Assembly (NCBI GenBank): GCA_964016885.1
Contig: OZ024758.1
Span: forward strand, 9,548,001 to 9,612,000
DNA: 64,000 nt
Reading direction: 5' to 3'
Source: Eledone cirrhosa
Lineage: Eukaryota
Positions 6,971-61,498 of this stretch are shown here, one piece after another (positions within the stretch are counted from its first letter, which is position 1; the number at the start of each line of letters is the position of its first letter). The notes below the pieces were generated by a model. It was given only the letters and a program-made list of their open reading frames with translations. It was not told the DNA's origin and made no database searches. A program made the translations under genes and the position numbers.

Positions 6971-7042
<72 letters not shown>

Positions 7043-7215
7043 GGAGTTGTGGTAAGGAACCAGATGGAACATAACGCACCAGAGTACTCAGTACTTAGGG
7101 TAGTAGAGTGGGTAATAGGAAAAAGTATGACCCCCGACGGTAGAGCTCAAACAGTTTCGAGTCCAGAAATAGTCGTCGAAATGGCTTCAGCTCTGCCGTC
7201 TGGGTCATACTTTTT

Positions 7216-7248
<33 letters not shown>

Positions 7249-7357
7249 GAAATGGGTTGAACTCTGCCGTCGGGGTCATACTTTTTTCTATATATAGGAA
7301 AAAGTATGACCTCGATGGCAGAGCTCAAGCAGTTTCGATGGCTATTTCTGGAAATCA

Positions 7358-7360
<3 letters not shown>
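7043..7360. mobile_element. Hairpin element D, full copy 7043-7219 plus extra arm fragments 7246-7360
   Basis: Tail GGTAAGGAACCAGATGG...GGGTAA plus inverted arms TAGGAAAAAGTATGACC / GGTCATACTTTTTCCTA, embedded in (TA)n. Confidence 0.75.
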
Positions 7361-13782: not shown

Positions 13783-14490
13783 CTTCTTCTTCGTTTTTCT
13801 TCTTTGTCTTCTTCTTCGCCCACGTATTCCTGAGAGGATCATGGAGGCAGATTCCTCAAATGCTTCCTCCAGCAGATCCTGTCAGAAGAAGCAACCGTCT
13901 CCAACTGATCAACCATCTTGCTTGGAGTCTAGCCTTGGGTCTCCAGTCGGTAGGTTTTGCATGTAAAATCTGTCCAGCGATTCTTTCCTGAGACATTCTA
14001 ACCACATGCCCATAGTATCTTAGCTGTGATCTCTCAATTCGGAGAAGTAGCAGCTCTACCTGGATCTCTGAGCTACGCACTCTATCAAGTAACATGATTC
14101 TAAAGGCCCTTCGAGGAATCCCATTTGGTTGCTTGTATACGTGATCATATTGTTTTGGTCATTACCCAAGATTCATGACCATAGGTAAGGGGTGGCACAA
14201 ATATTGAATTGAAGATAGCGAGTTTCGCTTTTACACCTACCTCACTTTTTCTGATTACTGTATGCTGAAGCTGGCACATTACTGCACCAGCTCCTGCAAT
14301 TCTTGCACTTAATTCAGCTTCCTGCCTTCCATCACTCATGAACAGTCTCGAGATACTTGAACTTCTCTACCTGCTTCAGTGGAACTCCATTCACATGTAG
14401 AGTGCACTGTACAGGCTTCCTTGAGAGGACGAGTGTCTCAGTTTTTGCAGCACTGATTTTCATTCCAGCCATGCAGCACTCATCATTGAA
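13783..14490 (-). pseudogene. RTE-clade (Expander/Rex3-like) LINE ORF2 3' fragment with (GAA)n tail
   Basis: Reverse translation GMKISAAKTE...QVEKFKYL...PPLTYGHESW...RSQLRYYGHVVRM...RWL with frameshifts; simple-repeat tail at 13783-13817. Confidence 0.85.
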
Positions 14491-15727: not shown

Positions 15728-15898
15728 TATTTTATCTGATGAAAGCACACCATAATTTCGCCGAGGTTGACTTTGCCTTTCATCCTTACGGGGTCGATAA
15801 AATAAAGTACCAGTAATGCACTGGGTAATTGCTGGCCTTGTGCCTAAAGTAGAAACAATAATTTAACTTGGTGTCCTTGAAATATGTATAATGAAATA
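15728..15898 (+). ncRNA. Hammerhead ribozyme with a SINE inserted in the stem II loop
   Basis: Same motif as 15547-15611; 5'-truncated SINE A at 15759-15857 with TSD ATAATTT (15752-15758, 15858-15864). Confidence 0.65.
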
Positions 15899-15960
15899 AA
15901 TATGGTTTTATAAATATAGTTTCCATTTGTTAATATATCGTATATATATATATATATATA

Positions 15961-16151
15961 TAGGAACAAGTATGACCCCGACGGCAGAGCTCAAGCCGTT
16001 TCGACGGCTATTTGAGTCCAGAAATAGCCGTCGAAACGGCTTGAGCTCTGCCGTCGGGGTCATACTTGTTCCTATTACCCACTCTACTACCCTAAGTGTT
16101 GAGTACTCTGGTGCGTTATGGTCCATCTGGTTCCTTACCGCTATTCATTCG

Positions 16152-16153
<2 letters not shown>
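15961..16153. mobile_element. Hairpin element D
   Basis: Perfect 53-bp arms (15961-16013 / 16022-16074), loop GAGTCCAG, about 80-bp conserved tail, flanked by (TA)n. Confidence 0.8.
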
Positions 16154-26667: not shown

Positions 26668-26705
<38 letters not shown>

Positions 26706-27021
26706 CAAATAAAGATTCAGCAAGAATCGCATTTTCGGCGGGCAGGAAAAGCGAAGTGAAACGCAAAAATCAGAAATGATACTGGCAAAGTGCTCAATAG
26801 TTAAAAACCAGAGCTAATATATATATATATATATTTATATATATGATAGTTTATTTGAAGCATTTTTGAGTATGAAACTGAAAAGTCTGTTTGTTCAGAA
26901 AGCCATGCAGTGCAAATGGGTTACATTGCCAATTAAAGAATAACTGAAAGTTACCTTAGCAATTTAATAATATTCCGAAATTTTTTGGGCTTAACAATCC
27001 ATTATCAAGGTGGGGGCTTAT

Positions 27022-31259: not shown

Positions 31260-31860
31260 GTATAGTTATAGTATAGTGAAGTTATAAGCAGTGTTTTTAT
31301 AGTGTTTTATTATAGTATAGTTATAGTATAGTGTGATTATAAGCAGTGTTTTATTATAGTATAGTTATAAGCAGTGTTTTTATAAAGTACTTTATTGTAG
31401 TATAGTTATAAGCAGTGTTTTTATAAAGTACTTTATTGTAGTATAGTTATAAGCAGTGTTTTTATAAAGTACTTTATTATAGTATGGTTATAAGCAGTGT
31501 TTTTATAAAGTACTTTATTGTAGTATAGTTATAAGCAGTGTTTTTATAAAGTACTTTATTATAGTATGGTTATAAGCAGTGTTTTTATAAAGTACTTTAT
31601 TGTAGTATAGTTATAAGCAGTGTTTTTATAAAGTACTTTATTGTAGTATAGTTATAAGCAGTGTTTTTATAAAGTACTTTCTTATAGTATAGTTATAAGA
31701 AGTGTTTTATAAAGTACTTTATTATAATATAGTTATAAGCAGTGTTTTTATAAAGTACTTTATTATAATATAGTTATAAGCAGTATTTTTATAAAGTACT
31801 TTATTATAGTATAAGCGGTGTTTTTATAAAGTACTTTATTATAGTATGGTTATTTTAAAG
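31260..31860. repeat. 41-bp minisatellite
   Basis: Unit TATAGTTATAAGCAGTGTTTTTATAAAGTACTTTATTGTAG, containing the palindrome ATAAAGTACTTTAT. Confidence 0.9.
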
Positions 31861-32304
31861 TAGTTAGTTATAAATTGTGCTTTTTTACACCTGTTTATTT
31901 CTGTCCACAGATCACTATATTTAGTTTACATATAATCCACTATATTTTTTCATCTGTTCTAGAGAAATTAATGGACTGTAGCAATGAAAATATTAAAGCC
32001 TACGAAATGAAGAATAATTCACTGTAGACTCATGGTTTTAACAATTTCTCACACATCTTCCCACCTCTTTAGCATTGATTTAAAAAAAAACAAAAGAAAA
32101 AGAGGGAAAATTTTCTTTGGCTTGATTTTTCTCTTCTCCAAATGTTGATTTAAATAATTCTATATTTGTTTCTCACTGACCTTGACATATTTACCTTTGT
32201 TTTCATTCTCTGCTGTGTATTACCTCACTCCACACCCATCACCCCTCCCCCACCCCCTGTCTTACTGATTTCTTCTAATTTTAGCTATTATTTTCAATAG
32301 TCAA

Positions 32305-35015: not shown

Positions 35016-35333
35016 TGTTTTCTTTATTAACCACAAGGGTTCACATAAAGTAGACATTAAGGACAGTACAGGACAATACAGGACGGCACAAATGGGCATT
35101 TCTGCGTGTAAAAATAATAATAATAATAATAATAACAACTAATTGGATTCCTGGTTGTTGACAATAATTAAGACAATAACTTCTGTCATATTTGTATAAT
35201 GAAACAATTCTGTTAAAGTAATTTATTAGCTGTAAATGGATAAATGAGAAGCCAAATGTAATTGCTTTTATTTCACTTCAACACCTAATAACATTAAAAT
35301 CATTACAGTGTTATATCACAGCTCTGATACTAT

Positions 35334-35572
35334 GGACACGTGGTTAGAATGTCTCGGGGAAAGAATCACTGGACAGATTTTATGGGCAAAACCAGCTGGC
35401 AGGAGACCCAGGGGTAGATCCCGAGCAAGATGGTTGGATAACATCGATGAGATTGGCTGGTCCCACTTGGGGATCCAGCCAGATCAGGTTGCTTCTGACA
35501 GGACCTGCTGGAAGGAGTGTTTAAGGACTCTGCCCTCACAACCCTCTTAGGAATAAGTGGGCAAAGAAGAAT
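35334..35572 (+). pseudogene. RTE-clade LINE 3' end, same family as 13783-14490
   Basis: GHVVRM...ERITGQILWAKPAGRRPRGRSRARWLDNI...DRTCW, followed by GTGGGCAAAGAAGAA. Confidence 0.8.
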
Positions 35573-44598: not shown

Positions 44599-44653
44599 AC
44601 TGCCTGAAGAGGTCACAGCCAAAGATGGCTGTCACTGAAATATATATAGCAGT
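44599..44653 (+). ncRNA. Minimal type I hammerhead ribozyme
   Basis: ACUGC-CUGAAGA-GGUcACAGCCA aaga UGGCUGUcACU-GAAA-UAUAUA-UA-GCAGU, followed by AATAAA. Confidence 0.8.
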
Positions 44654-44799
44654 AATAAACGAAGCTAAATTTTAATCATTTGACTTTTATTTAACTTTAT
44701 TTTACATTACTCCGGAGTAACCAAACCAACCTACGCACTTCGTCGAGAGCTCCAGCCTGCATACTGAGTTGTTGGTATACAACCAACATAAACTCAAAA

Positions 44800-44829
<30 letters not shown>

Positions 44830-44833
<4 letters not shown>

Positions 44834-44990
44834 AAAATAGTCAGGACCCTGATGGTTGAGCTCCGGCCGTTTTGACAGCTAGATCCGGAGCTCCACTGTC
44901 GGGATCCTGACTCTCTTCCTATTACTCTACTACCCTAAGTATCGAGTACTCTGGTGCATTATGGTCCACCTGGTATCTTACCACATCTTT
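44830..44990. mobile_element. Hairpin element D, diverged copy
   Basis: TAGGAA...TTCCTA arms and the conserved tail CCCTAAGTATCGAGTACTCTGGTGCATTATGGTCCACCTGG. Confidence 0.7.
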
Positions 44991-44998
44991 TATATATA

Positions 44999-45259: not shown

Positions 45260-45328
45260 ATTTTATCTGATGAAAACGCAGATATCATCCCATGATGATA
45301 TTTGTTTTTGAAATTCGCATAATAAAAT
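45260..45328 (+). ncRNA. Minimal type I hammerhead ribozyme
   Basis: AUUUUAU-CUGAUGA-AAAcGCAGAUAUCAUC ccau GAUGAUAUUUGUuUUU-GAAA-UUCGCA-UA-AUAAAAU. Confidence 0.7.
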
Positions 45329-55520: not shown

Positions 55521-56249
55521 TTAGTTTTTCAAGAATTGTTTATAGATAGTGGAATCTTCTAATTTTAAAGAATTTTCATAATTATTTGAATTCTCTATAA
55601 TTAAGCACCTTTCATACCTTTAGTTCTTTATCTTTAGTAAATAGATATTGAAGAATAAACTTTCACACAGCAAGCATACACTCGTTCTTACATGAGTAAT
55701 AATTTATAAAATAAATTAAAACTTTAGAATTTTATAGCTTTGATTAACACAATTAAGATTTTTTTTTCTTTATATTAACTATATTAATGCTGAATAATAA
55801 TTTGTTAACAATAATTTATCATAATTTTATTATAATCATTTCTGATATTTCATAAGTTATAAATGTGTTTATAATCATCGTCACTTTTCCATGCTTGCAT
55901 GGCTTGGAAAAATATTTAATAGTTTTTAATTAATATAATTAATAAAGTTAAACTTTCTCTGCATTAGCTACATTTATACCTGATAATAATTCTACTAATA
56001 GTAAAACACACTCTAACATTGCATATATATTGTAGGGGAAATAGTTATAAAATAATTAACCTTAGAATTTATATCTTCGATTTACATAATTAACTTAAAT
56101 TTTCTCTTTATAATTAAATGTATTAATGCACAATAAATGCAGTAGCCTTGTCTGATGATTGTGTGTACGCAGGTGAAATGCAAAAGACTTTTCACTTAGC
56201 CATAATACAGAATTAATATAAAACTTTACTTTAATATTGGGTAATCATA

Positions 56250-56430
56250 TAGGAACAAGTAAGACCTCGACGGCTGAGCTCAAGCCGTTTCGACGGCTAA
56301 TTCTGGACTGAATTAGCCGTCGAAACGGCTTGAGCTCAGCCGTCGAGGTCTTACTTGTTCCTATTACCCTAAGTATTGAGTACTTTGGTGCGTTATGGTC
56401 CACCTGGTTCCTTACCACATTTCCTTCATT
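56250..56430. mobile_element. Hairpin element D
   Basis: Perfect 54-bp arms (56250-56303 / 56310-56363) plus the conserved tail. Confidence 0.8.
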
Positions 56431-56637: not shown

Positions 56638-56981
56638 TGGCTTAGTGGTTAGAGCATTGGGCTTGCAATCGAAAGGTTGTGAGTTCAATTCTCAGACCGG
56701 GTGATGTGTTGTTTCCTTGAGCAAGACACTTTATTTCACATTGCTCCAGTTTACTCAGCTGTAGAAATGAGATGATAGGGACTTGGGGTCCCTATCATTC
56801 CACTGCAAAGTGGTCGTGGAGGTGCCACGGCAAAAAAGCACCCAGCACTCACTGTAAATGAGGTTGGTGTTAGGAAGGGCATCCAGCTGTAGAAATCAAG
56901 CCAGAATCAGTTCCCGTCCCACCCTTGCAAGCAGGGTAAAGCGGACGTAAAATGATATGAAATGATGATGATGATGATGAT
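56638..56981 (+). mobile_element. SINE family B
   Basis: Near-identical to the other B copies. Confidence 0.85.
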
Positions 56982-61126: not shown

Positions 61127-61498
61127 CTGCCCAGTGCATTACTGGTACTTTATTTTATCGACCCCGTAAGGATGAAGGGTGGTTAAGTTAACCTCGGCGG
61201 GATTTGAACTCAGACCATAAAGGGCCGTAACTCTTTGCTGCAAAGCATGGCGTCCGACCCTCTACCGATACTGCCAATCCACCGCAGAGTGTAAATAATT
61301 GTTTCTACTTTAGGCACAAGGCCAGCAATTACCCAGTGCATTACTGGTACTTTATTTTATCGACCCCGTAAGGATGAAAGGCAAAGTCAACCTCGGCGGG
61401 ATTTGAACTCAGATCTTAAAGGGACGTAACTCTTTGCTGCAAAGCATGGCGTCCGACCCTCTACCGATACTGCCAATCCACCGCAGAGTGTAAATAAT
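61127..61498 (-). mobile_element. Two tandem young SINE A copies
   Basis: The second copy is flanked by the duplicated CAGAGTGTAAATAAT. Confidence 0.85.

Follow-up and report, generated by a model that had tools for sequence, protein, structure and literature searches.

The window analysed here, a stretch of 64,000 nt from contig OZ024758.1 of the Eledone cirrhosa assembly GCA_964016885.1, is AT-rich animal DNA (GC 0.27-0.41) with many microsatellites and SINE copies. At 15961..16153 it harbours the first of four copies of a short palindromic insertion, designated here as element D, which is built of two inverted arms around a small loop and of a tail on one side only. The tail-less arm (15961..16013, minus strand), the inverted copy of a presumed pseudo-LTR (pLTR) end, is complementary at 53/53 positions to the tail-side arm (16022..16074, plus strand), the presumed sense pLTR end. 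The spacer between these perfect arms, an 8-nt loop at 16014..16021 (plus strand), has the orientation GAGTCCAG, and the tail follows at 16075..16153 (plus strand) with (TA)n at its end.

Copy 2 (56250..56430, plus strand) equally possesses perfect arms (56250-56302 and 56311-56363, 53/53 paired) and encloses the flipped loop CTGGACTG at 56303-56310, the end bases of which pair as well to give a 54-bp stem with a 6-nt loop; 12 bp are deleted from its tail. Copy 3 (7040..7219, minus strand) carries the flipped loop CTGGACTC, the exact reverse complement of the copy 1 spacer; directly after it, the tail-side arm lacks 11 nt. Copy 4 (44830..44992, plus strand), missed by the original prediction, represents a diverged subfamily which differs from copy 1 at 19/53 positions and has its centre deleted. 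Adjoining copy 3, two tail-less half arms without strand assignment (7247..7359, that is 7247-7290 and 7295-7359) stand back to back round a short TA run; each may stem from a single cDNA with its priming site at the arm/tail boundary.

The original prediction had described copies 1 and 2 accurately with respect to their perfect 53-54 bp arms, to the internal hairpin AGCCGT-TTCG-ACGGCT, which is present in both arms of each, and to the four positions (4/53) at which their arms differ, every change being found on both arms. It was equally correct in that the loop lies in opposite orientation in these two copies and that the copy at 7043, our copy 3, is flipped. When the loop is read starting at the tail-less end, one copy has GAGTCCAG, and two copies and one half copy (the right-hand half arm of 7247-7359) have the CTGG type, the orientation of copy 4 being ambiguous; this count of 1 versus 3 in the window, from three copies and one half copy, is too small for a test of a 50:50 distribution. 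For single-stranded DNA, the predicted rod of -71.8 kcal/mol is much more stable than the branched form of -52.7 kcal/mol, with z = -18 for whole-element folding.

The tail, 67-79 nt in length, is found on a single side in all four tailed copies, as had been proposed, and is joined to the arm at the same point in each; a free D tail does not occur in the window (nhmmer, next match E = 0.6). Element D has no ORF of its own, is shorter than 200 nt and shows a fixed arm/tail junction. The description as a non-coding mobile repeat other than a conventional MITE is upheld: MITEs are symmetric, with terminal inverted repeats and a target duplication and no one-sided extension, and D has its tail at the same point in 4/4 copies. 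A coding role of a 61-codon open frame that runs through arm and tail was rejected, as no homologue of near or longer length was found; two phmmer matches of this frame turned out to be summed weak matches over tandem repeats in unrelated proteins. A prokaryotic origin was likewise rejected, with zero matches in GTDB genomes (two patterns), phages and plasmids.

Long TA runs flank the four copies at seven of their eight ends, the exception being the left end of copy 2 with a short TA stretch only; positions no further than 3 nt from such long runs make up 3.5% of the window. No target-site duplication is readable at the D copies, the insertions being inside (TA)n. A likeness to the tail end may exist in about four bases that precede the left TA run of copies 1 (15937-15941), 2 and 4 (44798-44802), and the left flank of copy 2 (56229-56249) mirrors the start of its own tail with an alignment score of 14, which we treat as weak.

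Pfam searches with the 150 longest of the 365 non-simple ORFs of the window gave three matches, all irrelevant, and neither an ORF for a reverse transcriptase (RT) or GIY-YIG endonuclease nor a longer parent copy of D was found there. Rfam detected window-wide only a tRNA-like SINE head and no ribozyme family; at the locus itself, a low threshold added generic miRNA-hairpin matches under the gathering score and no ribozyme. The tRNA-derived head and a second, very abundant SINE-like repeat are represented at 56638-56695 and in about 40 related segments, and the SINEs of the window presumably resemble octopus families. Further features include a 41-bp tandem array at 31337-31887, the unit of which holds a 14-bp palindrome, and two frames at 13856-14158 (minus strand) and 35248-35550 (plus strand), without a Pfam match, which we take to resemble the 3' ends of RTE-type LINEs.

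Neighbouring elements and hammerhead ribozymes

Self-comparison of the window revealed that other palindromes directly adjoin copies 1 and 4. Three neighbours represent other families. P1 (44357..44801, plus strand) has inverted arms matching at 127/129 positions, a hammerhead at 44604-44648 with an antisense mirror, a 97-nt spacer, one tail and (TA)n on both sides. P2 (15419..15940, minus strand) combines arms of 86/87 and 79/79 with a hammerhead at 15603-15555, a 20-nt spacer and one tail with a bulged hairpin, and P3 (45176..45440, plus strand) is a short nested palindrome with a hammerhead at 45267-45321, a tail with the bulged hairpin and (TA)n. P1 and P2 are unrelated to D by sequence and follow the same plan, (TA)n-arm-spacer-arm-one tail-(TA)n, with a tail of about 85-96 nt. 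In the window, four matches at three loci (P1 with its mirror, P2 and P3) were obtained with a type I hammerhead descriptor, versus a mean of 0.23 in shuffles, of which 1/200 reached three; in P1 and P2, the complete type I hammerhead sits in the tail-pointing arm.

P1, copy 4 and P3 are strung together in TA runs that adjoin one another. The spacer of P1 carries a hairpin of its own, and the P1 tail shows only a variant of the tail motif described below, by eye like that of Hydra-1_Crog. P2 contains, in helix II of its antisense arm, a 96-nt SINE piece (15759-15854) with a 7-nt target duplication; as this piece is 100% identical to 61303-61398, youth alone explains the near-perfect arms of P2. 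A solo tail of another family (26705..26817, minus strand) has a (TA)n run on either side and the bulged hairpin at a distance of 4 nt from its start; it may remain after loss of a palindrome between TA repeats.

In D itself, the arm contains a stretch like the 3' half of a hammerhead core (16032..16055, plus strand), consisting of CGAAAC, a 5-bp helix III round the palindrome GAGCTC and GTC, without a CUGANGA box; an exact CUGANGA or UUGANAA 5' core box is absent from every D copy. The half-hammerhead descriptor, with a helix of 5-6 bp, matches window-wide in copies 1 and 2 only and points toward the tail. It was designed post hoc, tuned on the arm, and is matched in 20/50000 arm shuffles; a looser descriptor reaches 2.7%, and the repeated GCCGTC motif in the arm inflates the test. 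We regard as a lead that the central hairpin of D would correspond to helix II of a putative ribozyme, the 5' half of which is replaced by the inverted arm. Several Hydra ribozymes in the supplement of PMC8557442 read actc-n-gagt-h; the loop GAGTC as a hammerhead cleavage site was discarded as a 5-nt coincidence and is kept only as a weak alternative.

A bulged hairpin in the tail

The tail of copy 1 contains at 16081..16107 (plus strand) a bulged hairpin (RCTC, inner stem, 2-nt bulge, GAGYRCT) which is common to other ends of Penelope-like retrotransposons (PLEs). Searched as CTCYR-N8-18-GAGYRCT, with the last positions widened to take in window variants, this motif has six matches in the 64-kb window, against 0.38 on average and 3 at most in 300 shuffles, and occurs in 11/20000 shuffles of the tail. 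Three of the matches lie in D tails and two in P2 and P3, and the sixth, at a new site, is the solo tail at 26705-26817. All six form a 3-5 bp inner stem at the 2-nt bulge and at no other bulge size, although the stem lies outside the search pattern; the inner stems differ in sequence across four families, and all four jointly formed a stem in 6/200000 shuffles. The distance from the arm end to the beginning of the motif is 7, 7 and 2 nt in the D copies, compared with 6 nt in P2. Although copy 2 is young, its 12-bp deletion takes out the outer stem of the hairpin, and the motif is therefore present in 3/4 D tails. A structure-only descriptor is less specific (eight matches versus a mean of 1.3 and a maximum of 6), and of its two extra matches the one inspected, at 14384, lies away from any TA run. 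Tail folding z-scores of +0.33, -0.32 and -0.85 are of no significance.

The same hairpin can be recognized by eye in three of the six Hydra consensuses in the supplement of PMC8557442, namely at the 3' ends of Hydra-2_Amil and Hydra-2_Ajap and twice at the 5' start of Hydra-1_Ajap, with a variant in Hydra-1_Crog. In these published instances, stem and bulge are, by eye, as in the window, and in Hydra-2_Amil and Hydra-2_Ajap the motif is located downstream of the hammerhead. By eye it is missing from the consensuses given for Hydra-1_Amil and Hydra-1_Obim, and the three Octopus Naiad 3' ends examined in the same supplement show neither the hairpin nor a likeness to D. Exact D words gave no consensus match in that supplement, only one chance match in GC-rich coding sequence, and no match in the supplement of PMC13282606, which holds no repeat library. 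For the tail, an internal complementary region of the DIRS type or a subterminal repeat of the Helentron type was considered and dropped, since it amounted to a 6-nt match by eye that is absent from copy 4.

Arm identity and decay

Arms within a copy differ at 0/53 positions in each of copies 1 and 2, at 6/44 in copy 3 and at 7/37 in copy 4, with one mirrored family-level change in copy 3 and 11 in copy 4, the latter number depending on the alignment of the outer ends. Divergence in place should have left each of copies 1 and 2 with 4-7 mismatches, and the probability of seeing none is 0.018-0.0008 per copy. That none is seen argues that the arms are made identical at the birth of a copy, and the mismatches of the older copies 3 and 4 indicate that arms identical at the start then drift apart. 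Of the originally proposed 'self-correcting' arms, identity at birth consequently stands and maintenance does not, as the mismatches of these two older copies and the young SINE in P2 rule out ongoing correction. In the copy at 44830, both the arms and the tail are the most diverged of all copies. The arms closest to those of copy 1 are found in copy 2 and in one arm of copy 3, with four differences each, and both carry the opposite loop.

Discussion

Inverted pLTRs with a tail on only one of them are a published form of PLE insertion (PMC3846280; PMC8557442), palindromes at the inverted pLTR junction have been described (PMC3846280) and hammerheads in the pLTR are a PLE hallmark (PMC4209133), with the type I hammerhead canonical in most PLE clades and absent from Naiads (PMC8557442). 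We are accordingly fairly confident that element D represents short insertions from a PLE end, and just as confident of its make-up, two inverted copies of the last 53 nt of a pLTR plus a one-sided PLE tail, with no coding sequence. The sequence features suggest that D was most likely copied in trans by the RT and GIY-YIG endonuclease of a (TA)n-targeting PLE, putatively of the Hydra clade, and that it is probably a Hydra-type PLE end family. No parent element was found in the window, and (TA)n insertion, which is common to Naiad and Neptune, is not diagnostic of the Hydra clade. Among the Hydra families described, almost all insert in (TA)n and one is from Octopus, and the clade proteins are characterized by RWK, DKT and CxCX5C motifs without CCHH (PMC8557442). 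PLEs account for 6.83% of the Octopus vulgaris genome (PMC13282606, supplement), and the D family may already be catalogued, for example in the O. vulgaris repeat library, Repbase or Dfam. While the inverted pLTRs with one tail are known, the flip/flop loops and the conserved tail hairpin would be the new side of D; in the largely open-access literature searched, outside Repbase and Dfam, no report of loop isomers at PLE junctions or of a conserved bulged tail hairpin was found. The bulged hairpin may be a conserved cis signal, as yet unreported, for the RT/endonuclease of (TA)n-targeting PLEs.

The PLEs described in PMC8557442, Hydra families included, share with D the (TA)n target, an inverted truncated copy (Penelope-13_HM), a hammerhead near the 3' end with the bulged hairpin, by eye, downstream in several consensuses, and one family from Octopus bimaculoides; D differs from those presented there in having no ORF, no complete hammerhead, a length below 200 nt, a fixed junction and both loop orientations. 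Penelope/Poseidon elements, such as those of Adineta (PMC3846280) and PAc of the anole (PMC11167929), likewise have inverted pLTRs, a single tail and junction palindromes, together with two RT starts that define the tail and nicking and extension of both strands, but are long coding elements with tails of 30-40 bp (67-79 nt in D), and the parts of these reports examined make no mention of loop isomers. Octopus Naiad PLEs resemble D in the (TA)n target, the tail at one end and the lack of a canonical hammerhead, some possessing a 'half core' (PMC8557442, supplement). Non-LTR retrozymes are also short non-autonomous pLTR derivatives moved by PLEs, but are described as head-to-tail tandems with intact hammerheads (bioRxiv 10.64898/2026.07.22.740005), whereas D is head-to-head and contains half a ribozyme at most. 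With inverted units and no complete ribozyme, D falls outside the definition of retrozymes as tandem direct units with a complete type I hammerhead each. Long inverted arms are also typical of palindromic MITEs and of the hairpin termini of parvoviruses and poxviruses, the latter with flip/flop loops; D is set apart from them by its one-sided PLE-type tail, and a link to a transposase, Rep or resolvase was not found in the window.

According to PMC8557442 and PMC11167929, it is unresolved how PLEs come by their inverted repeats, tails and second strands. The anole PLE, in purified form, nicks the two strands of the target at AT-rich sites and extends both, and two internal RT start sites bound its tail, the RNA template being mostly uncleaved (PMC11167929); two-strand nicking and extension and internal starts are known in vitro from this one Poseidon element. 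For D, the enzyme would bind the RNA at the bulged tail hairpin and nick both strands of a (TA)n run, upon which cDNA synthesis would start from one nick at the distal end of the tail and from the other where arm and tail meet. The same RNA segment would then serve as template for the two arms, with identity at birth and mirrored differences between source elements as the consequence. The two cDNAs would meet or pair at the central hairpin, probably the hammerhead helix II, fixing the arm length, and the orientation of the loop would be set by the cDNA that supplies it, which would yield flip and flop isomers; the product would have one tail, mirrored arms and a constant junction. Whether two-ended priming is the cause of the loop flip we consider an evenly balanced question. 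D may propagate as a palindromic non-autonomous RNA or be released again and again from a longer PLE, each time by a cut at the same hairpin. Taken jointly, D may be a minimal PLE parasite in which the flip/flop loops record two-ended target-primed reverse transcription through a ribozyme helix and the tail hairpin is an unreported conserved cis signal, a combination that we put forward tentatively, at somewhat less than an even chance.

The priming from two ends is contested by a scenario in which D is equally PLE-derived and the loop is flipped at the DNA level, by template switching or by arm recombination, the latter already named as an alternative in the original prediction, that inverts the spacer in the source or in a resident copy with 53-bp arms and perhaps homogenizes the arms; the inverted arm would then arise by self-priming fold-back of a single cDNA. 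We consider this a real possibility, though below an even chance. Template switching is documented to homogenize arms and to invert spacers, favouring long arms and short spacers (PMC8604942), self-priming has been proposed for PLE junction palindromes (PMC3846280), and the eighth loop base of copy 2 is now complementary, its arm being longer by one. As self-priming of one cDNA gives a single orientation, a separate inversion is needed, which is quite possible. On the other hand, copies 3 and 4 retain 6 and 7 unrepaired arm mismatches, so DNA-level correction events must be rare per copy, the arms closest to those of copy 1 carry the opposite loop, and the near-perfect arms of P2 need no explanation beyond youth.

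Other explanations depart further from two-ended priming on a PLE RNA. A symmetric TA-inserting MITE of the Tc1/mariner type could have inserted at the TA with which a separate PLE tail begins, with a composite or repeated targeting giving rise to the four copies; TA does bound the palindrome on both sides, tail-less arms exist at 7247-7359 and the tail of another family stands alone between TA runs at 26705-26817, but this is made unlikely by the invariant junction of all four D tails with no free D tail in the window, by the arms of P1 and P2, which are plainly hammerhead-bearing PLE sequence and in P2 end at the same distance from the tail motif, and by the coincidence of most diverged arms and tail in the copy at 44830. 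The original prediction of a non-autonomous DNA element replicated through or resolved at a hairpin by an HUH/Rep protein, protelomerase or tyrosine recombinase drew on the likeness of flip/flop loops and internal hairpins to parvovirus and poxvirus termini, with which the asymmetric 8-nt spacer is consistent. This reading found no support and is very improbable, as a cognate Rep or resolvase gene was found neither among the 150 of 365 window ORFs scanned nor in phages, plasmids and GTDB genomes, the rod is favoured over the branched fold by 19 kcal/mol, and the PLE tail hairpin and hammerhead-bearing neighbours of the same anatomy are left unexplained, whereas anatomy and tail motif match PLE ends. 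That the perfect palindromes are fold-back artefacts of sequencing or assembly might be suspected from the presence of three near-perfect palindromes of at least 54 bp within 64 kb; it is hardly credible given the same junction in four dispersed and diverged copies, a SINE with duplicated target in the arm of P2 and the arm decay of old copies.

Models of PLE integration differ in the loop orientations, relative to the tail, that they predict: only one if a single cDNA primes itself, and both, at random, if two cDNAs converge. For such models, a family of short insertions with a fixed junction and an asymmetric 8-nt loop provides a ready counter. If the joint reading holds true, the question of inverted pLTRs and second strands in PLEs would be testable by orientation counts in one genome; if the flip is due to DNA template switching only, the finding reduces to an ordinary new PLE-end family with a tail motif. 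The covarying tail hairpin provides a way to recognize ORF-less PLE remnants that are otherwise annotated as MITE or unknown. The main value of element D is that its loop orientation makes models of PLE integration countable, together with a tail hairpin that looks like an unreported cis signal.
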